Of a stretch of 64,000 nucleotides of DNA, positions 6,442 through 61,225 are shown one piece after another. This DNA is from Eledone cirrhosa (Eukaryota): contig OZ024743.1 of NCBI GenBank assembly GCA_964016885.1, forward strand, positions 201,066,001-201,130,000. Direction: 5' to 3'. The notes under the pieces are model-generated. The model searched no databases. It was not told where the DNA came from and saw only the letters and a program-made list of their open reading frames with translations. A program made the translations under genes and the position numbers. Numbering within the stretch: the stretch's first letter is position 1; every line of letters begins with the position of its first letter.

Positions 6442-6447
<6 letters not shown>

Positions 6448-9400
6448 GGAAAAAATGAAACGATATTTCATTTCCCACTCTTAGTACGGCTGTTACTTAA
6501 ATATAAGTATGTACACGTACATACATATATGTATACCGACGTACAGTAGTATGTATATATATATATACATACATGCACACATATATATATGCACGTATGG
6601 ATTCACCGAACATTTATTATAATGCTCGGTGTGTTTGTAAACAAACATCCCGTATTAAGCCGTAGTGTCTAGCAACCACCGTTGCTCGTTTGTTCAACAC
6701 TGACAAAGGAACGCTGTACTAGTTTCAAGCTTGTTAGCTATCGTCAGCAACGTATACCTTCCTGCCAGATTGTTGAACGTATATACTTACCTTATGCATA
6801 TTAACGGCTGAGTAGCCCAATATGCATATCGAGTGGGTTAATCGGCCGGGTGCACCGAAAACGATAAACGGAAAAAATGAAACGATATTTCATTTCCCAC
6901 TCTTAGTACGGCTGTTACTTAAATATAAGTATGTACACGTACATACATATATGTATACCGACGTACAGTAGTATGTATATATATATATACATACATGCAC
7001 ACATATATATATGCACGTATGGATTCACCGAACATTTATTATAATGCTCGGTGTGTTTGTAAACAAACATCCCGTATTAAGCCGTAGTGTCTAGCAACCA
7101 CCGTTGCTCGTTTGTTCAACACTGACAAAGGAACGCTGTACTAGTTTCAAGCTTGTTAGCTATCGTCAGCAACGTATACCTTCCTGCCAGATTGTTGAAC
7201 GTATATACTTACCTTATGCATATTAACGGCTGAGTAGCCCAATATGCATATCGAGTGGGTTAATCGGCCGGGTGCACCGAAAACGATAAACGGAAAAAAT
7301 GAAACGATATTTCATTTCCCACTCTTAGTACGGCTGTTACTTAAATATAAGTATGTACACGTACATACATATATGTATACCGACGTACAGTAGTATGTAT
7401 ATATATATATACATACATGCACACATATATATATGCACGTATGGATTCACCGAACATTTATTATAATGCTCGGTGTGTTTGTAAACAAACATCCCGTATT
7501 AAGCCGTAGTGTCTAGCAACCACCGTTGCTCGTTTGTTCAACACTGACAAAGGAACGCTGTACTAGTTTCAAGCTTGTTAGCTATCGTCAGCAACGTATA
7601 CCTTCCTGCCAGATTGTTGAACGTATATACTTACCTTATGCATATTAACGGCTGAGTAGCCCAATATGCATATCGAGTGGGTTAATCGGCCGGGTGCACC
7701 GAAAACGATAAACGGAAAAAATGAAACGATATTTCATTTCCCACTCTTAGTACGGCTGTTACTTAAATATAAGTATGTACACGTACATACATATATGTAT
7801 ACCGACGTACAGTAGTATGTATATATATATATACATACATGCACACATATATATATGCACGTATGGATTCACCGAACATTTATTATAATGCTCGGTGTGT
7901 TTGTAAACAAACATCCCGTATTAAGCCGTAGTGTCTAGCAACCACCGTTGCTCGTTTGTTCAACACTGACAAAGGAACGCTGTACTAGTTTCAAGCTTGT
8001 TAGCTATCGTCAGCAACGTATACCTTCCTGCCAGATTGTTGAACGTATATACTTACCTTATGCATATTAACGGCTGAGTAGCCCAATATGCATATCGAGT
8101 GGGTTAATCGGCCGGGTGCACCGAAAACGATAAACGGAAAAAATGAAACGATATTTCATTTCCCACTCTTAGTACGGCTGTTACTTAAATATAAGTATGT
8201 ACACGTACATACATATATGTATACCGACGTACAGTAGTATGTATATATATATATACATACATGCACACATATATATATGCACGTATGGATTCACCGAACA
8301 TTTATTATAATGCTCGGTGTGTTTGTAAACAAACATCCCGTATTAAGCCGTAGTGTCTAGCAACCACCGTTGCTCGTTTGTTCAACACTGACAAAGGAAC
8401 GCTGTACTAGTTTCAAGCTTGTTAGCTATCGTCAGCAACGTATACCTTCCTGCCAGATTGTTGAACGTATATACTTACCTTATGCATATTAACGGCTGAG
8501 TAGCCCAATATGCATATCGAGTGGGTTAATCGGCCGGGTGCACCGAAAACGATAAACGGAAAAAATGAAACGATATTTCATTTCCCACTCTTAGTACGGC
8601 TGTTACTTAAATATAAGTATGTACACGTACATACATATATGTATACCGACGTACAGTAGTATGTATATATATATATACATACATGCACACATATATATAT
8701 GCACGTATGGATTCACCGAACATTTATTATAATGCTCGGTGTGTTTGTAAACAAACATCCCGTATTAAGCCGTAGTGTCTAGCAACCACCGTTGCTCGTT
8801 TGTTCAACACTGACAAAGGAACGCTGTACTAGTTTCAAGCTTGTTAGCTATCGTCAGCAACGTATACCTTCCTGCCAGATTGTTGAACGTATATACTTAC
8901 CTTATGCATATTAACGGCTGAGTAGCCCAATATGCATATCGAGTGGGTTAATCGGCCGGGTGCACCGAAAACGATAAACGGAAAAAATGAAACGATATTT
9001 CATTTCCCACTCTTAGTACGGCTGTTACTTAAATATAAGTATGTACACGTACATACATATATGTATACCGACGTACATTAGTATGTATATATATATATAC
9101 ATACATGCACACATATATATATGCACGTATGGATTCACCGAACATTTATTATAATGCTCGGTGTGTTTGTAAACAAACATCCCGTATTAAGCCGTAGTGT
9201 CTAGCAACCACCGTTGCTCGTTTGTTCAACACTGACAAAGGAACGCTGTACTAGTTTCAAGCTTGTTAGCTATCGTCAGCAACGTATACCTTCCTGCCAG
9301 ATTGTTGAACGTATATACTTACCTTATGCATATTAACGGCTGAGTAGCCCAATATGCATATCGAGTGGGTTAATCGGCCGGGTGCACCGAAAACGATAAA

Positions 9401-9824
9401 CGGAAAAAATGAAACGATATTTCATTTCCCACTCTTAGTACGGCTGTTACTTAAATATAAGTATGTACACGTACATACATATATGTATACCGACGTACAG
9501 TAGTATGTATATATATATATACATACATGCACACATATATATATGCACGTATGGATTCACCGAACATTTATTATAATGCTCGGTGTGTTTGTAAACAAAC
9601 ATCCCGTATTAAGCCGTAGTGTCTAGCAACCACCGTTGCTCGTTTGTTCAACACTGACAAAGGAACGCTGTACTAGTTTCAAGCTTGTTAGCTATCGTCA
9701 GCAACGTATACCTTCCTGCCAGATTGTTGAACGTATATACTTACCTTATGCATATTAACGGCTGAGTAGCCCAATATGCATATCGAGTGGGTTAATCGGC
9801 CGGGTGCACCGAAAACGATAAACG
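6442..9824 (-). repeat. 8 tandem 422-bp hammerhead-containing units (left arm of palindromic retrozyme-like array; ribozyme sense on minus)
   Basis: aaacggaaaaaatg recurs at 6444, 6866, 7288 ... 9398, with a final partial aaacg at 9820; only one substitution seen (9078 g>t). Confidence 0.97.
6707..6763 (-). ncRNA. type I hammerhead ribozyme (first of 8 minus-strand copies: 6707, 7129, 7551, 7973, 8395, 8817, 9239, 9661)
   Basis: minus strand ACGUUG-CUGACGA-U-AGCU-AACA-AGCU-U-GAAA-CUAG-UA|CAGCGU. Confidence 0.85.
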
Positions 9825-9830
9825 TGTACG

Positions 9831-12527
<2,697 letters not shown>

Positions 12528-22759: not shown

Positions 22760-24967
22760 GGTAGGAGGAGAGTAACATGGTGGTGGTGGAACAGTAAGGT
22801 GGAGGGGTCAATTAAGGCCAAAAAGCAGGCTTGGAAAGTATGGCGGGATGGGGGAAGCAGAGAAGACTATCAAGTGGCCAGGAGGGAAGCTAGGAGACAA
22901 GTGTACTTCGCAAGAAGGGAAGCAGAGGAAAGAAAGTTCTACAACGCGAGGACCAAAAACGTGAGGTGTTCAGGATTGCTAGGCAATGTGTCAAGGAATA
23001 CCGTGATATTGTCGGGGAGAAGTGTGTACTTAATGATGACGGCATACTTGCCATCAACGATGCTGATAAGAAGGTAGCTTGGAAGTGTCACTATGAAAGG
23101 CTACTAAATGACGAGAATAAATGGGAGAAAGACAGTCTCCCCCCACATCGACCCAATAGAGGGACCAGCAGTGTTAGTCGAGGGTAGTACAATAAGTAAG
23201 GCAATCAAAGATATGAAGACGGGTAAGGCGGCTGGGCCTTCGGAAATAGTTGCCGAGATGCTGAAAGCATCTGGTACGGTGGGACACACCATGGTCACCT
23301 GGATAGTTAACCAAGTCGTACAGAATGGGGTTGTTCCGAAGGACTGGCGTAGCAGCATCATCGTTAACTGTTATAAGGGTAAAGGAGATGCCCTAGATAG
23401 GAGTAACTATAGAGGCATTAAATTAATCGACCAGGTCATGAAGGTCACGGAAAAAGTAATAGCGCATCTAATCAGAGAGAGAATTGATCTAGATGAAATG
23501 CAGTTCGGGTTTGTGTCAGGCAAAAGTACCACAGACGCTCTTTTCATTGTACAACAACTACAGGAGAAGTACCTAGCTAAAAGTAAACCCCTATACTTAG
23601 CTTTTGTCGACTTGGAGAAAGCCTTCGACAGAGTCCCCCGTTCCATTATCTGGTGGGCTCTTAGAAAACTAGGTGTTGAAGAATGGCTTGTTAGAGCTAT
23701 ACAAGCCATGTATAAAGAAACAGTCAGCAAGGTTAGAATTAACAACGAATATAGTGAAGAGTTTAGCGTAAAAGTTGGTGTCCATCAGGGCTCTGTACTC
23801 AGCCCCCTACTATTTATTATTGCCCTTCAGGCTATAACAGAGGAGTTCAAGACTGGTTGCCCATGGGAACTCCTATACGCAGATGACCTAACACTCATAG
23901 CTAAATCAATGGCCGAGCTAGAGAAGAAATTCCAAACATGGAAGCACGGCCTAGAATCAAAAGGCCTTAAAATTAACCTGGCTAAGACTAAAGTTCTAGT
24001 TTGTAAGAAAGAAAATAAGGCGGTGGTCCCTTCCGGGAAGTGGCCATGCTCAGTGTGTAGGAAAGGCGTAGGTAGAAACTCCATTTTGTGTCCCAAATGC
24101 AAAGTATGGGTGCATAAAAGTTGTAGTGGGATCACAGGTAAGCTAACTAAGAACATAGATTTTACATGTGGCCGGTGCTCTGGTGCAATAAGTAGCAGCA
24201 AGTGCCCACAAAATACTAGCTCTTTCAACTGCGCAGAGGGTTCTATAGAAATAGTGGACAGCTTCCGTTACCTGGGTGACAAAATCAGCAGTGGGGGAGG
24301 GTGCTCTGAAAGTACAGTAGCTAGAGTCAGAACTGGATGGAAAAAGTTCAGAGAGCTTATACCACTATTAGCCGCTAGAGGGTTCTCCCTAAAAATGAAA
24401 GGCAGGTTATACGATGCCTGCATACGAACAGCAATGCTGCATGGCAGTGAGACCTGGGCATTGTGTGCAGAGGATATATGCAGACTAGAGAGGAACGAAG
24501 CTTGCATGCTCCGCTGGATGTGCAATAGTAATATACGTGAACGGCAAAGCATAAACGAACTAAGGAAAAAATTAGAAATAAGAGGGATCAGATGTTGTTT
24601 ACTCGAGAGAAGGCTACGTTGGTATGGTCACGTGATGCGCATGAAAGACGAGAGCTGTATAACAAAGTGCAGGGCAATAAAGATAGACGGTAGCCACATC
24701 CAGGCCGAAACAAATGAGATCGTGTAGGTGTCACGACAAAAAAAACACAGTCCACGCTGTAATGTGGCCGTGTAGGCAACACGGTAAAAACCTCCCAGCC
24801 CACACTGTAAATGTGGTTGGTGTTAGGAAGGGCATCCAGCTGTAGAAAACCCGCCAGATATTCCTATGCAAGCAAGATAATCACTCTTGCCTCAAGTGGG
24901 AAAACCCCCGTCCAAACCCATGCAAGTGTGGAACACGGACGTTAAATGTTGATGATGATGATGATGA
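22760..24967 (+). mobile_element. 5'-truncated RTE LINE (main family), RT ORF 23108-24727, deletion of C-terminus and start of 3'UTR at ~24697
   Basis: 539-aa ORF with full RT motifs and PHD-like finger; (GAT)n tail; starts right after (TA)n. Confidence 0.96.
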
Positions 24968-51393: not shown

Positions 51394-51497
51394 CAAAGTT
51401 TGTTTTATAAATAGAGACGCACCTATGTTGAGTGCTCTAAATCAGTTATAAACATTTATGTTTGTCGGACTGCCAACAAATTAAATACAACTTCTAG

Positions 51498-51532
<35 letters not shown>

Positions 51533-51536
<4 letters not shown>

Positions 51537-54338
51537 GGGAACACACAAGCCAGGTAGATTATATCCTTACCAGAAGACGTGACAGAGTGTCTGTTGTAAA
51601 CACTAAATCCCTCCCCCATGAAGAATGCACCTCCCAACATAGACTGATAATTAGCGACCTCATAGTCAGGACGAGACGTACCCGACAGCAGAAGAGGACT
51701 ATCCTCAGGAGGAAAATATGGAAACTAAAGGACCCCACAGCCAGAAATAAATTTCAAAGCATATTACTTGATGCTTTCGACAGTAAGGAAGAGCATCTAG
51801 AATCGGACAATATAGAGGGACAGTGGAAATTTCTGAAAGCAAACCTGCTGTTGGCGACAGACGAAGTCTGTGGCTGGAGCAGGCCTGTAGGCAGGAGGAG
51901 AGTAACATGGTGGTGGAACAATAGGGTGGAGGGGTCAATTAAGGCCAAAAAGCAGGCTTGGAAAGTATGGCGGGATGGGGGAAGTAGAGTAGACTATCAA
52001 GTGGCCAGGAGGGAAGCTAGGAGAGAAGTGTACTTAGCAAGAAGGGAAGCTGAGGAAAGAAAGTTCAAGCATGTTCTACAACGCGAGGACCAAAAACGTG
52101 AGGTGTTCAGGATTGCCAGGCAATGCGTCAAGGAAAACCGTGATATTGTCGGGGAGAAGTGTGTACTTAACGATGATGGCATACTTGCCATCACCGACAC
52201 TGATAAGAAGGTAGCTTGGAAGTGTTACTATGAAAGGCTACTAAATGAGGAGAATAAATGGGAGAAAGACAGTCTCCCCCATATCGACCCGATAGAGGGA
52301 CCAGCAGTGTTAGTCGAGGGGAGTATAATAAGTAAGGCAATCAAGGATATGAAGACTGGTAAGGCGGCTGGGCCTTCGGAAATAGTTGCTGAGATGCTGA
52401 AGGCATCTGGCACGGTGGGACACACCATGGTCACCCGCATAGTTAACCAAGTCGTACAGAATGGGGTTGTTCCGAAGGACTGGCATAGCAGCATCATCGT
52501 TAACTGTTATAAGGGTAAAGGAGACGCCCTAGATAGGAGTATCTATAGAGGCATTAAATTAATCGACCAGGTCATGAAGGTCATGGAAAAAGTAATAGCG
52601 CAACTAATCAGAGAGAGAATTGATCTAGATGAAATGCAGTTCGGGTTTGTGTCAGGCAAAAGCACCACAGACGCTCTTTTCATAGTACGACAACTACAGG
52701 AGAAGTACCTAGCTAAAGGTAAACCCCTCTACTTAGCTTTTGTCGACCTGGAGAAAGCCTTCGACAGAGTCCCCCGCTCCATTATCTGGTGGGCTCTTAG
52801 AAAACTAGGCGTTGACGAATGGCTTGTGAGGGCTATACAAGCCATGTATAAAGAAACAGTCAGCAAGGTTAGAATTAACAACGAATATAGTGAAGAGTTT
52901 AGCGTAAAAGTTGGCGTCCATCAGGGCTCTGTTCTCAGCCCCCTACTATTTATTATTGCCCTTCAGGCTATAACAGAGGAGTTCAAGACAGGCTGCCCAT
53001 GGGAACTCCTATACGCAGACGACCTGACACTCATAGCGGAATCAATGGCCGAGCTAGAGAAGAAATTCCAAACATGGAAGCACGGCCTAGAGTCAAAAGG
53101 ACTTAAAATTAACCTGGCTAAGACCAAAGTTCTAGTTTGTAGGAAAGAAAACAAGGCGGCGGTCCCTTCTGGGAAATGGTCGTGCTCGGTATGTAGGAAA
53201 GGCGTAGGTAGAAACTCCATCTTATGTCCTAAATGCAAAGTATGGGTGCATAAAAGATGTAGTGGGATCACAGGTAAGCTAACTAAGAACATAGACTTTA
53301 CATGTGGCCGGTGTTCTGGTGCAATAAGTAGCAGCAAGTGCCCACAAAATACTAGCTCTTTCAATTGCGCAGAGGGTTCTATAGAAATAGTGGACAGCTT
53401 CCGTTACCTGGGCGATAAAATCAGCAGTGGGGGAGGGTGCTCTGAAAGTACTGTAGCTAGAGTCAGAACTGGTTGGAAAAAGTTCAGAGAGCTTATACCA
53501 CTATTAGCTGCTAAAGGGTTCTCCCTAAAAATGAAAGGCAGGTTGTACGATGCCTGCATACGAACAGCAATGTTGCATGGTAGTGAGACCTGGGCATTGT
53601 GTGCAGAGGATATACGCAGACTAGAGAGGAACGAAGCTTGCATGCTCCGCTGGATGTGTAACAGTAATATACGTGAACGGCAAAGCATAAACGAACTAAG
53701 GAAAAAATTAGAGATAAGAGGGATCAGATGTTGTTTACTCGAGAGAAGGCTGCGTTGGTATGGACACGTGATGCGCATGAAAGTCGATAGCTGTATTACA
53801 AAGTGCAGGGCAATAAAGATAGACGGTAGCCACGGAATAGGCAGACCTAGAAAAACATGGGATGAGCTGATAAACTCAGACCTCACACACTTACACCTCT
53901 CCAAGACAATGTCACTGGACCGTGACCTTTGGCGGTACTCAGTAACAGAGAAGACCCGCCTTGCCAGTAGGCATCTCTAACAAACTACACCCCGTCCCGC
54001 CACCACCCCCACCCCATCCACACCACCCCGTTCCATGTAAAGTTATGTTGGTGCCGCGCCATCCAGGCCGAAACAAACGAGATCGTGTAGGTGTCACGAC
54101 AAAAAAACACACAGTCCACGCTGTAATGTGGCCGTGTAGGCAACACGGTAAAAACCTCCCAGACCCACACTGTAAATGTGGTTGGTGTTAGGAAGGGCAT
54201 CCAACTGTAGAAAACCTGCCAGACAGTCCTATGCGAGCAAGACAATCACTCTTGCCTCAAGTGGGACTACCCCCGTCCAAACCCATGCAAGCGTGGAACA
54301 CGGACGTTAAACGTTGATGATGATGATGATGATGATGT
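51533..54338 (+). mobile_element. longest and best-preserved RTE LINE copy (5' truncated within the APE endonuclease)
   Basis: begins right after (TA)n with SGEHTSQVDYIL; ends in (GAT)n. Confidence 0.97.
51587..53980 (+). CDS. RTE LINE polyprotein fragment: APE C-terminus, reverse transcriptase and PHD-like finger (797-aa uninterrupted frame; not a true start)
   Basis: SQHRLI (APE SDH-like), YRGIKL, QFGF, FVDLEKAFDRV, GVHQGSVLSPLLF, YADD, FRYLG, WYGHV, GRPRKTW. Confidence 0.93.
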   Translation: MSVVNTKSLPHEECTSQHRLIISDLIVRTRRTRQQKRTILRRKIWKLKDPTARNKFQSILLDAFDSKEEHLESDNIEGQWKFLKANLLLATDEVCGWSRPVGRRRVTWWWNNRVEGSIKAKKQAWKVWRDGGSRVDYQVARREARREVYLARREAEERKFKHVLQREDQKREVFRIARQCVKENRDIVGEKCVLNDDGILAITDTDKKVAWKCYYERLLNEENKWEKDSLPHIDPIEGPAVLVEGSIISKAIKDMKTGKAAGPSEIVAEMLKASGTVGHTMVTRIVNQVVQNGVVPKDWHSSIIVNCYKGKGDALDRSIYRGIKLIDQVMKVMEKVIAQLIRERIDLDEMQFGFVSGKSTTDALFIVRQLQEKYLAKGKPLYLAFVDLEKAFDRVPRSIIWWALRKLGVDEWLVRAIQAMYKETVSKVRINNEYSEEFSVKVGVHQGSVLSPLLFIIALQAITEEFKTGCPWELLYADDLTLIAESMAELEKKFQTWKHGLESKGLKINLAKTKVLVCRKENKAAVPSGKWSCSVCRKGVGRNSILCPKCKVWVHKRCSGITGKLTKNIDFTCGRCSGAISSSKCPQNTSSFNCAEGSIEIVDSFRYLGDKISSGGGCSESTVARVRTGWKKFRELIPLLAAKGFSLKMKGRLYDACIRTAMLHGSETWALCAEDIRRLERNEACMLRWMCNSNIRERQSINELRKKLEIRGIRCCLLERRLRWYGHVMRMKVDSCITKCRAIKIDGSHGIGRPRKTWDELINSDLTHLHLSKTMSLDRDLWRYSVTEKTRLASRHL

Positions 54339-55459: not shown

Positions 55460-55519
<60 letters not shown>

Positions 55520-55717
55520 ATGTACATACATATATGTATACAGACGTACAGTAGTATGTATATATATACATACATGCACACATATATATATGCACGTATC
55601 GGTTTACCGAACATTTATTATAATGCTCGATTTGTTTGTTTGTAAACAAACAAACAGCCCGAATTACGCCGTACAGTGTTTAGGCAACCATGTCACCTTT
55701 TTGTTCAACACTGACAC

Positions 55718-55775
55718 AGGGACGATGTACTAGTTTCAAGCTTATTAGCTATCGTCAGCATCATATACCTTCCTG
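55718..55775 (-). ncRNA. type I hammerhead ribozyme (diverged locus, left arm)
   Basis: minus strand tgatg-CTGACGA-tagctaataagctt-GAAA-ctag-TA|catcg. Confidence 0.8.
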
Positions 55776-56317
55776 CCAGATGGTTGAACGTCTGAAAGTA
55801 TATACTTTCCTTATGCATATTAACGGCTGAGCAGCCTAATTTGCATATCGAGTGAGTTCAGTTGGCCGGGCACACCGAAAACGATAAAAGAAATAGAATG
55901 AAACAAAATTTCATTTCTCACTCTTAGTACGGCACTTACTTAAATGTAAGTACGTATGTATGTATACGTACATACATATATGTATACAGACGTACAGTAG
56001 TATGTATATATATACATACAAATCGAGCATTATAATAAATGTTCGGTAAACCAATACATGCATATATATGTGTGCATGTATGTATATATATACATACTAC
56101 TGTATGTCTGTATACATATATGTATGTACGTATACATACATACTTACATTTAAGTAAGTGTCGTACTAAGAGTGAGAAATGAAATTTTGTTTCGTTCTAT
56201 TCCATTTATCGTTTTCGGTGTGCCCGGCCGACTGAACTCACTCGATATGCAAATTAGGCTGCTCAGCCGTTAATATGCATAAGGAAAGTATATACTTTCA
56301 GACGTTCAACCATCTGG

Positions 56318-56376
56318 CAGGAAGGTATACGATGCTGATGATAGCTAATAAGCTTGAAACTAGTACATCGTTCCTG
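56318..56376 (+). ncRNA. type I hammerhead ribozyme (diverged locus, right arm)
   Basis: acgatg-CTGATGA-tagctaataagctt-GAAA-ctag-TA|catcgt; predicted cleavage after 56365. Confidence 0.85.
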
Positions 56377-56750
56377 TGTCAGTGTTGAACAAAAAGGTGA
56401 CGTGGTTGCCTAAACACTGTATGGCGTAATTCGGGCTGTTTGTTTGTTTACAAACAAACAAACCGAGCATTATAATAAATGTTTGGTAAACCGATACGTG
56501 CATATATATATGTGTGCATGTATGTATATATATACATACTACTGCATGTCTGTATACATATATGTATGTACGTATACATACATACTTACATTTAAGTAAG
56601 TGCCGAACTAAGAGTGAGAAATGAAATTTCGTTTCATTCTATTCTATATATATATATTTATATATGCAAAAGTTCTATTTAAATTGTTGGGATACAACAA
56701 GCAAATATTATTATAACTGATATAAAGCATTCGACAAATATTTGGAGTAG

Positions 56751-56979
56751 ATATACAATATTAATAAATGGAAACTATATTTATAAAACCATATTTATTT
56801 CATTATATATATTTCAAGGATACCAAGTTAAATCATGGTATGCCTTCAGACAAAATACAATATATAACAGTTTTACAAATAGATATTGACGTACCCTTTC
56901 AAAAAGGTATCCTTGAAATATATATAATGAAATAAATATGGTTTTATGAATATAGTTTCCATTTATTAATATTGTATAT
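56751..56979. mobile_element. family B2 fold-back element (74-bp inverted arms; hammerhead core with a 3-nt deletion)
   Basis: arms 56751-56824 and 56906-56979; homologous to 51283-51400. Confidence 0.7.
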
Positions 56980-57057
56980 TTATATATATATTTATATATT
57001 TATATATATAGAGATATATATAGATATTTATATATGTATATATATTTATATATATAT

Positions 57058-59480
57058 GTAGAAATGCTTGAGCGTAAGGAGGTTGATGTTTGCTGTATCC
57101 AAGTCACCAGGTGGAGGGGTGGGTCTGCTAGATTCATTGGTGGGTAAAAAACGATGCTATAAGCTTTTCTGGGTGGGAAATGACAATGGGCTGGGTGGAG
57201 TAGGAATCATGGTAGCAGAAAAATGGGTAGATAAGATAATACACGGAAATAGAGTGGGCGACAGAATAATTAGAATAAGACTTGTCCTAAATAGAACTGT
57301 GACAGTAATATCTGCGTATGCACCCCAATCTGGACTGCCTGGCATTATAGAAGACAGATTCTATGAGATATTGATGCGCACTACCTCCCAAATAACTGAC
57401 AGTGACTACATAATTATTGCTGGCGACCTAAATGGTCACATTGGACAACATTGTGACGGCTATCACGGAATCCATGGAGGCTATGGGTTTGCTACTAGAA
57501 ATGAGGAAGGCTCCAGAATCCTGGAATTCTGTGACGCAAATAACCTAACTATCTGTAACACTAACTTCAAAAAAACGAGACAATCACTTGATCACCTATA
57601 GATCAGGGGAACACACAAACCAGTCAGATAGATTATATCCTTACCAGAAGACATGATAGAATGTCTGTGGTAAACACTAAATCCCATCCCCATGAAGAAT
57701 GCCCCTCCCAACATAAACTCATAGTCAGGACAAGACGTACTCAACAACAGAAGAGGACTATACTCAGGAGAAAAAAATGGAAGCTAAAGGACCCCACAGC
57801 CAGTAATAAATTTAAAAGCATATTACTTGATGCTTTCGACAGTAAGGAAGAGCAATTAAAGTCTTACAATATAGAGGAACAGTGGGAATACCTGAAACTA
57901 ACCTGCTGAAGGCGGCAGATGAAGTCTGTGGCTGGAGCAGGCCTATAGGCAGGAGTAGAGTAACGTGGTGGTGGAACAGTAAGGTGGAGGAGTCAATTAA
58001 GGCCAAAAAGCAGGCTTGGAAGGTATGGCGGGATGGGGGATATAGAGAAGACTATCAATTGGCCAGGAGGGAAGCTAGGAAATGAGTGTACTTTGCAAGA
58101 AGGGAAGCAGAGGAAAAATGTTCAAGCATGTTCTACAACACGAGGACCAAAAATGTGAGGTATTCAGGATTGCTAGGCAATGTGTCAAGGAAAACCGTGA
58201 TATTGTCGGGGAGAAGTGTGTCCTTAATGATGATGGTGTACTTGCCATCACAGATGCTGATAAGAAGGTAGCTTGGAAGTGTCACTCCGAAAGGCTACTA
58301 AATGAGGAGAATAAATGGGAGAAAGACAGTCTTCCCCACATCGACCCAATAAAGGGACCAGCAGTGTTAGTCGAAGGTAGTATAATAAGTAAGGCAATCA
58401 AAGATATGAAGACAGGTAAGGCGGCTGGGCCTTCGGAAATAGTTGCTGAAATGGTGAAAGCATCTGGAACGGTGGGACACACTATGGTCACCCGGATAGT
58501 AAACCAAGTCATACAGAATGGGGTCGTTCCGAAGGACTGGCGTAGCATTAACTGCTACAAGGGTAAAGGTGATGTCTTAGATAGGGGTAACTATAGAAGC
58601 ATTAAATTAATCGACCAGGTCATGAAGGTCACAGAAAAAGTAATAGCGCAACTAATCAGAGAGCAAATTGATCTAGATAAAATGCAATGTTACATGGCAG
58701 TGAAACCTGGGCATTGTGTGCAGAGGATAGAAGCAGACTGGAGAGGAACGAAGCTTTCATACTCCGCTGGATGTGTAATAGTAATATATGTGAACGGCAA
58801 AGCATAACGAATAAATTGAGAAATTAGGAATAAGAGGGATCAGATGTTGTTTACTCGAGAGAAGGCTACGTTGGTACGGTCACGTGATGCGCATGAAAGA
58901 CGACAGCTGTATAAAAAAGTGCAAGGCGATAAAAATAGACGGTAGCCATGGAGTGGGCAGACCCAGAAAAATCTGGGACGACTTGATAAATTCGGACCTC
59001 ACACACTTACACCTCTCCAAGACAATGTCACTGGACCGAGATCTTTGGCGCTACACAGTAATACCGAAGACCCGCCTTGCCTAAGTACAAAGAGAAACCT
59101 ACAGTCAGTAGGCACCTCTAACAAAAATACACCCCCATCGCACTACCACCACCGCCATCCACACCACCCCTTTCAATGTAAAGTCATGTTGGTACCACAA
59201 CATCCAGTCCTAAACAAATGAAGTCGTGTAGGTGTCACGACAAAAAAACACACAGTCCACGCTGTAATGTGGCCGTGTAGGTAACACGGTAAAAACATCC
59301 CAGTTCCACACTGTAAACGTGGTTGGTGTTAGGAAGGGCATCCAGCCATAGAAAACCCGCCAGGCAGTCCTATACGAGCAAGAGCACCAATCTTGCCTCA
59401 TGTGGTAAAATTCCCGTCCAAACCCATGCAAGCGTGGAAGATGGACGTTAAACGATGATGATGATGATGATGATGATGAT
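57058..59480 (+). mobile_element. RTE LINE with APE endonuclease region and a large internal deletion removing most of the RT
   Basis: GVGIMV, VISAYAPQ, IAGDLNGHIG, NEEGSRILEFC; junction at ~58686 joins DKMQ to the LHGSET region. Confidence 0.93.
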
Positions 59481-59648: not shown

Positions 59649-61225
59649 ATCATCATCATCATCATCATCAACGTTTAACGTCCGTGTTCCACGCTTGCAT
59701 GGGTTTGGACGGGGGTTTTCCCACTTGAGGCAAGAGTGATTGTCTTGCTCGCATAGGACTGTCTGGCAGGTTTTCTACAGTTGGATGCCTTTCCTAACAC
59801 CAACCACATTTACAGTGTGGAACTGGGAGGTTTTTACCGTGTTGCTTACACGGCCACATTACAGCGTAGACTGAGTGTTTTTTGGTCGTGACACCTACAC
59901 GATCTCATTTGTTTCGGCCTGGATGGTGTGGCACCAACATAACTTTACATAGAAGGGGGCCGTGTGGATGGGGTGGGGGTGGTGGGACGGGGGTGTATTT
60001 TGTTAGAGATGCCTACTGACTGTAGTAGGTTTTACTATGTATTTAGGTAAGGCGGGTCTTCTCTATTACTGAGTACCGCCAAAGGTCTCGGTCCAGTGAC
60101 ATTGTCTTGGAGAGGTGTAAGTGTGTGAGGTCGGAATTTATCAGCTCGTCCCAGGTTTTTCTAGGTCTGCCTATTCCGTGGCTACCGTCTATCTTTATTG
60201 CCCTGCACTTTGTTATACAGCTATCGACTTTCATGCGCATCACGTGTCCATACCAACATAGCCTTCTCTCGAGTAAACAACATCTGATCCCTCTTATTTC
60301 TAATTTTTTCCTTAATTCGTTTATGCTTTGCCGTTCACGTATATTACTATTACACATCCAGCGGAGCATGCAAGCTTCGTTCCTCTCTAGTCTGCGTATA
60401 TCCTCTGCACACAATGCCCAGGTCTCATTGCCATGCAACATTGCTGTTCGTATGCAGGCATCATACAACCTGCCTTTCGTTTTTAGGGAGAACCCTTTAG
60501 CGGCTAATAGTGGTATAAGCTCTCTGAACTTTTTCCATCCAGTTCTGACTCTAGCTACTGTACTTTCAGAGCACCCTCCACCACTGCTGATTTTGTCACC
60601 CAGGTAATGGAAGCTGTCCACTATTTCTATAGAGCCCTCTGCGCAGTTGAAAGAGCTAGTATTTTGTGGGCACTTGCTGCCACTTATTGCACCAGAGCAC
60701 CGGCCACATGTGAAATCTATGTTCTTAGTTAGCTTACCTGTGATCCCACTACATCTTTTAGGCACCCATACTTTGCATTTCTGACACAAAATGGAGTTTC
60801 TACCTACGCCTTTCCTACACACTGAGCATGGCCACTTCCCGGAAGGGACCGCCGCCTTATTTTCTTTCCTACAAACTAGAACTTTGGTCTTAGCCAGATT
60901 AATTTTAAGGCCTTTTGATTCTAGGCCGTGCTTCCATGTTTGGAATTTCTTCTCTAGCTCGGCCATCGATTCAGCTATGAGTGTTAGGTCGTCTGCGTAT
61001 AGGAGTTTCCATGGGCAGCCGGTCTTGAACTCCTCTATTATAGCCTGAAGGGCAATAATAAATAGTAGGGGGCTGAGAACAGCCTTGATGGACGCCAACT
61101 TTTACGCTAAACTCTTCACTATATTCGTTGTTAATTCTAAACCTTGCTGACTGTTTCTTTATACATGGCTTGTATAGCTCTCACAAGCCATTCGTCGACA
61201 CCTAGTTTTCTAAGGGCCCACCAGA
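59649..61225 (-). mobile_element. 5'-truncated RTE LINE (main family), tail-to-tail with the previous copy
   Basis: ORF 60043-61098 with YADD and finger; truncation abuts (TA)n. Confidence 0.95.

Follow-up and report, generated by a model that had tools for sequence, protein, structure and literature searches.

Head-to-head insertion of a hammerhead-bearing repeat into a (TA)n tract of Eledone cirrhosa: a candidate non-LTR retrozyme with the end pattern of Penelope-like elements

Introduction

Metazoan non-LTR retrozymes consist of tandemly repeated units that are non-coding and a few hundred nucleotides long (PMC7229834; 10.64898/2026.07.22.740005). As described in the available text of these reports, each unit contains one type I hammerhead, the monomer is highly self-paired, and the copies occur as dispersed monomers and multimers alongside Penelope-like elements (PLEs). 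Retrozymes have been proposed to be non-autonomous PLEs, and the enzyme that moves them is a stated open question (10.64898/2026.07.22.740005). The Eledone cirrhosa family analysed here is like them in all these respects, but its hammerhead is of the small type with a palindromic helix III; moreover, the available text of the retrozyme reports does not describe arms placed head to head, a pair of fixed 3' ends or targeting of TA tracts, and in that of PMC7229834 the words "inverted" and "microsatellite" occur 0 times. The locus of interest carries one hammerhead per arm and falls outside what Li et al. call active, namely two consecutive units (10.64898/2026.07.22.740005, available text).

The family also resembles EN+ PLEs (Penelope/Poseidon, Neptune, Naiad), as far as the cited parts of the literature describe them, in 5' truncation, partial tandems and an inverted 5'-truncated copy (PMC8557442, PMC3846280, PMC4209133), as well as in a one-end tail, microsatellite bias, a minimal hammerhead and two start sites (PMC8557442, PMC3846280, PMC4209133, PMC11167929). 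In PLEs the inverted 5'-truncated copy often has its tail at one end only (PMC8557442; PMC3846280), the bias for microsatellites is published, and the making of tandem-inverted insertions is a stated open question (PMC8557442). A small hammerhead with a palindromic helix III, thought to be active as a dimer, has been described for PLEs, as have pairs of minimal hammerheads on opposite strands, 100-700 bp apart (PMC4209133). In contrast to these elements, the Eledone unit has no ORF, its tail is ~60 nt where PLE tails are 30-40 nt, its arms are made of whole repeating units, and our searches found no homologous autonomous partner. Non-autonomous Chlamys elements such as MRC1 are likewise comparable, being PLE derivatives with pLTRs and multicopy head-to-tail insertions; they differ in that their 3' end resembles autonomous families and that their clade is reported to be without canonical hammerheads (PMC8557442, in the part cited).

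Biochemical work gives these comparisons a mechanistic frame. A purified PLE protein, predicted to be a dimer, was found to nick AT-rich DNA on both strands and to extend both, starting within the RNA at two sites, one on either side of the tail; in the experiments cited, hammerhead cleavage was unnecessary for insertion in vitro and the start site did not differ between the two strands (PMC11167929).

Results

A fold-back insertion with one tailed end

The window is the whole stretch of 64,000 nt analysed here (contig OZ024743.1, positions 201,066,001 to 201,130,000; coordinates below count from its first letter). Positions 55507-56645 form a fold-back. In self-BLAST its arms show 93.4% complementarity across 55499-56594, and there is a direct repeat whose period is 442 nt. 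The element lies in a (TA)n target tract that is seen on both flanks (55463-55506 on the left, ~56645-56657 on the right). The left arm (55507-56020; 514 nt, 1.16 units) has the ribozyme sense on the minus strand, an inner 5' end at unit position 154, numbered from the cleavage site, and an outer 3' end at a site that we call E1, without a tail. The right arm (56014-56645; 632 nt, 1.43 units) has the ribozyme sense on the plus strand and runs from an inner 5' end at unit position 89 to an outer 3' end at a second site, E2. It includes the ~57-nt "tail" between the fixed sites E1 and E2 (56589-56645, plus strand), which is present at the right end only. The arms meet head to head (5'-5') at 56014-56020 with a 7-nt overlap containing one mismatch; the exact microhomology is 3 nt (56018-56020). 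A preliminary description had already reported such a fold-back ribozyme unit in (TA)n with these arm orientations, and both observations hold.

A related young array of the 422-nt subfamily, with 8.0 + 6.0 units head to head, is present at 6442-12383 as a separate insertion, and its unit is 84% identical to the 442-nt unit. Junction mapping confirmed that the junction at 56014-56020 is unlike that of the array. The different subfamily and the own junction agree with the proposal that the two are independent insertions. The endpoints were also said to differ; the outer ends are instead the same two sites, swapped left to right, with E2 left and E1 right in the array and E1 left and E2 right in 55507-56645.

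No frame of at least 200 aa was found within 55507-56645 in a scan of the window, and frames of at least 150 aa at its relatives were either simple repeat or owned by neighbours. No frame combining RT and GIY-YIG lies within the element or is contiguous with it. None of the public contigs spans the junction at 56014-56020 in a comparison that skipped repeats, and organisms B and C gave short matching pieces only, at 95%.

A minimal hammerhead in each arm

Each arm contains one minimal type I hammerhead motif: at 55723-55763 on the minus strand (core 55758-55728, predicted cleavage 3' of 55728) and at 56330-56370 on the plus strand (core 56335-56365, predicted cleavage 3' of 56365). Both motifs have a CUGAYGA core (CUGAUGA in the right arm), a short stem II, GAAA, a palindromic helix III and a 5-bp stem I; one CpG-type change in stem I of the left arm leaves a U-G pair. 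Pairing of stem I is kept across subfamilies, and one of its positions is U-G, A-U or G-U, a case of covariation. Rfam gave no match at the gathering score; below the cut-off of 52 bits, Hammerhead_HH9 matched weakly at 56317-56388 (20.4 bits, E 0.042). Because this match is weak and below the cut-off, the putative ribozyme is called from the core motif, the predicted fold and the covariation. Rfam matches to miRNA families at the E-value level were rejected as artefacts of TA/CA-rich hairpins.

The monomer is 70% paired as a predicted circle, and the predicted circular fold has z scores of about -7.3 for the 442-nt unit and -8.0 for the 422-nt unit relative to 40 shuffles. When two copies of the motif were cofolded without constraint, the catalytic dimer through helix III was not recovered. 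Since 55507-56645 has a single hammerhead per arm, this copy cannot release a monomer in cis and is most likely a dead-end product.

Further hammerhead observations were made in passing. In the minimal hammerheads of several PLE families (L081, L099, L100 and relatives), U and A replace the usual C3-G8 pair, and helix III is palindromic in these three and in related hammerhead variants. The same genome contains another family of tandem hammerhead repeats of ~300 nt (L120, L121, L160, L169, L231). An octamer, ATGCAAAT, is found upstream of the hammerhead in the 442-nt subfamily, at 56247-56254 (+) and 55839-55846 (-), and the 422-nt array subfamily differs from it by one letter. It is possibly a promoter element.

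An abundant family with several subfamilies

Searches of the genome for other copies found many. A 31-nt motif pattern was matched exactly 24,001 times, while its reversed control had 0 matches, and a relaxed pattern had 28,573, against 11 for the control; this abundance is not due to chance. With the right arm as query, 3,821 candidates were obtained for the 442-nt variant, in line with the dispersed mobile family that had been proposed, and the 40 that were scored are 97-98% identical, self apart. We collected 52 distinct cleavage-to-cleavage monomers of 418-538 nt, which fall into several subfamilies; that of 55507-56645 is a 442-nt group, distinct from the 422-nt group of the array. The latter includes 100% identical copies on several contigs and appears to be extremely young. 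Arrays reach 16-18 near-identical units.

The insertion had been described as older and diverged. Compared with the majority of their own subfamily (46 related copies), its arms differ at 5/311 and 7/310 sites (1.6% and 2.3%), 7 of the 12 changes being of CpG type, and at 10/310 sites they differ from each other. Judged from these sequences, 55507-56645 is indeed probably somewhat older than the 422-nt array. The 16% gap between the two, on the other hand, appears to separate subfamilies and not to reflect decay, since the arms lie only 1.6% and 2.3% from the majority of the group to which they belong. We read 55507-56645 as one insertion, modestly aged, of a repeat that is non-coding, has a 442-nt unit and carries a minimal hammerhead motif; it is an ordinary and probably inert copy.

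Fixed 3' ends, scattered 5' ends and a pairing rule

When 30 loci were mapped on the unit, 3' ends fell at two places and 5' ends anywhere. The two 3' sites, E1 and E2, are ~60 nt apart and both run into (TA)n, as do most called ends; their position is ambiguous by a few letters at the (TA)n border. The same two sites were found across subfamilies in 106 records (2 from the window, 29 best hits, 55 from C1, covering the first motif-bearing loci of C1, and 20 young arrays). Circularly permuted termini had been expected, a view that we reject because 3' ends are at two fixed sites and only the inner 5' ends vary. Fixed linear termini, the outcome named as contrary to permutation, are seen at the 3' ends, with two sites, but not at the 5' ends.

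In 40 of 41 contiguous two-armed copies, one end is E1 and the other E2 (p 1.9e-11 against 50:50); the count is 49 of 50 if nine copies with an internal TA run are included. For these counts, which include one local-duplicate pair, three copies with broken tails were set aside, 6/106 records gave no end call, and two loci known to be two-armed (L003, L017) were scored as single. The sole exception, L030, is a compound locus. The C1 set comprises 23 two-armed copies and 32 single-end calls, a share that is biased, probably low, as samples were picked by similarity or intact motif.

We mapped 48 junctions, and all are different, one local duplication excepted, which supports the earlier argument against an assembly artefact as the source of this recurring architecture. 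The 96 inner 5' ends scatter over the whole unit, and the arms mostly overlap by 0-5 nt or are joined by short templated filler. Either arm can be the longer one (E1 in 26/48, E2 in 22/48). A by-eye count showed that 42/48 E1 arms read through the cleavage site. No pile-up of 5' ends was seen there: 4/96 lie within 12 nt, and three 5' ends listed at position 1 continue into the ribozyme. Linear cut monomers were rejected as template, the pile-up that they predict being absent. With 42/48 E1 arms crossing the cleavage site, a circular or multimeric template is plausible; the crossing arms together with the missing pile-up indicate that the template is an uncut multimer or a ligated circle. A local duplication is seen at L159:1026-4758, where the junction is identical in two fold-back copies that lie 2,586 nt apart.

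The two arms of a copy fall into one subfamily, and private variants are common to both arms in L169, L143, L167, L173 and L172. In three copies (L016, L024, L026) the short arm is little more than the tail. The shared subfamilies and variants and the tail-only short arms argue for one shared template for both arms. In the young loci L179 (G000:C1:392883500-392892500) and L168 the arms carry different variants, and variants switch partway along one arm. This pattern suggests template switching or a heterogeneous multimer template, and a single monomeric circle does not explain it. In L1 twin priming, both nicked target strands prime, with inversion as the result. The three copies with a near-tail-only short arm are like its products; the Eledone insertions differ from them in that the arms overlap in sequence, that each arm can have many units and that there are two defined starts.

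The same end pattern in autonomous Penelope-like elements

The genome contains many elements that combine an RT with a GIY-YIG domain at the C terminus; a search for GIY-YIG frames with PF01541 gave 10,596 candidates. In a young family, intact frames of 775 aa are numerous, score identically and are arranged both head to head and in tandem; the family appears Neptune-like from its CxxC linker (compare PMC8557442, in the part cited). A second PLE family, with 713-aa frames, gave 86,050 candidates. Both families are inserted in (TA)n and have two 3' ends, with tails of ~55 and ~88 nt, and a by-eye count found one arm at each of the two 3' ends in 12/12 and 14/15 two-armed copies of these two autonomous families. 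The 775-aa family moreover has a hammerhead of the same type as the 442-nt unit.

Sequence homology to the unit was not detected in two young families or downstream of the PLE frames compared. There was no significant word match in the 775-aa family, and nothing above 2.5 in 12 regions downstream of PLE frames save a single z of 4.1 at L091, which we rejected as helper homology, being one of 24 comparisons. No autonomous PLE homologous to the unit was found among 40 of the 10,596 GIY-YIG candidates and in two protein searches. Units near PLE frames in L091, L092, L170, L169, L017 and L020 were rejected as helper-linked, being separated by (TA)n or on the wrong side, and we read them as co-insertions into the same tracts. 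The most plausible candidate helper is the Neptune-like 775-aa family, given its intact young frames, its hammerhead type and its 55-nt tail.

Several arrangements around these frames deserve mention. The 775-aa family has an upstream 476-aa frame at G000:C4:322578000-322605900 (L245-L247) and other loci, and its head-to-head tandem arrays have a period of ~4.2 kb. At L221:2000-4867 only a few TA separate a unit array from the 5' region of a 713-aa PLE frame that is intact; this was seen in one of five upstream regions inspected. We regard this arrangement as a nested insertion or a template switch.

Discussion

The family has the features of a non-LTR retrozyme that can be checked in sequence, as given in the cited parts of PMC7229834, PMC7761336 and 10.64898/2026.07.22.740005: an apparent type I hammerhead in each unit (with the HH9 match of Rfam below cut-off), tandem units of a few hundred nucleotides (418-538 nt in the family, with one hammerhead per arm at the locus), no coding capacity, and a stable self-paired monomer by prediction. 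It also shows the features of a non-autonomous PLE, namely 5' truncation of variable extent accompanied by an inverted copy that is itself 5'-truncated, a fixed 3' end with the tail on one side only, and an AT-rich or microsatellite target; the RT and GIY-YIG frame of an autonomous PLE is lacking. In our best reading, the family is a non-LTR retrozyme, that is, a non-autonomous Penelope-like element. The retrozyme class, the inverted arms and the one-sided tail are already published. For the one-sided tail, the main texts hold qualitative descriptions only, and in open-access main texts we found no quantified E1/E2 rule in a retrozyme together with a match in PLEs of the same genome.

We consider it likely that the insertion was written by a Penelope-like RT-endonuclease acting in trans, with one arm started at each fixed 3' site. 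A source copy would be transcribed into a multimer that stays uncut, or that is cleaved by dimeric hammerheads and ligated into a circle. Both strands of (TA)n would be nicked by the PLE protein, which probably acts as a dimer; from one nick cDNA would be primed at E2, from the other at E1, aided by the TA-like letters there. Each cDNA would extend a variable distance along the repeating template, and the cDNA ends would be joined via 0-5 nt of microhomology or short templated filler. Double priming is the simplest model because of the in vitro PLE data and the E1/E2 pairing rule. Several results speak against this reading: no homologous autonomous element turned up among those searched, the arms of L179 and L168 differ in their variants, the Rfam match is below cut-off, cofolding failed to give the dimer, and in vitro insertion needed no hammerhead cleavage and started alike on both strands (PMC11167929).

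Other routes to a fold-back have to be weighed against this one. A cDNA might snap back, prime itself and copy itself into an inverted arm, self-priming having been proposed (PMC3846280, in the part cited). Variants often common to sister arms would fit, as would a few palindromic junctions in which both arms end at one position (L168, L143, L115); most junctions, however, are asymmetric with 0-5 nt overlap, either arm can be longer, and the inner units of L179 and L168 are not mirrored. Snap-back also leaves the strict E1/E2 pairing without a reason, and we judge it unlikely. Copying of a circular RNA from random starts would permute both ends circularly. It accounts for the scattered 5' ends and for most arms crossing the cleavage site, and arrays of 16-18 near-identical units fit a circular template, but 3' ends fixed at two sites across subfamilies, common to 55507-56645 and the array at 6442-12383, make it highly improbable.

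We give equally little credence to the idea that the copies are no separate family but solo pLTRs, the 5'-truncated ends of an autonomous PLE. PLE insertions are heavily 5'-truncated, and their hammerhead pairs on opposite strands have the 100-700 bp spacing mentioned above (PMC4209133, in the part cited); yet arms longer than one unit enter another unit and never an ORF, arrays of up to 18 units included, and on the side of a unit where a PLE frame would be expected, none adjoins it. That the fold-back is an artefact of assembly or long reads, or a DNA-level inversion in a satellite, is least credible of all: the arms differ at 10/310 sites and carry different defined ends, and copies of this architecture are spread over many contigs, their junctions being distinct, while the lack of a public contig across the junction, repeats being skipped there, is uninformative.

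Returning to double priming by a PLE protein in trans, we tentatively propose a stricter form, in which Penelope-type integration is obligately asymmetric: one complex would hold one RNA on both sides of the tail, prime one cut target strand per side and copy a repeating, circular template both ways. If true, the near-invariant E1/E2 pairing would be a direct genomic footprint of asymmetric double priming, and the mobilisation of animal retrozymes would be tied to PLE machinery with sequence homology unneeded. The rule of one arm per start site is sharp and testable by in vitro priming. The family also offers a resource, with tens of thousands of short insertions, identical copies on multiple contigs and intact young PLE frames alongside.

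Other features of the window lie near the insertion. A second, unrelated fold-back occupies the same TA tract at 56656-56990 (arms 56748-56824 and 56906-56982). One of its ends has a long tail and the other is short; it matches 23/265 records. Its relatives (L150) carry a minimal hammerhead in intact form, and in the window copy the core of this motif is damaged. Long frames and fragments that resemble LINE-type reverse transcriptase/endonuclease by eye were noted at 23108-24724, 51485-53977, 57060-58804 and 60046-61101.
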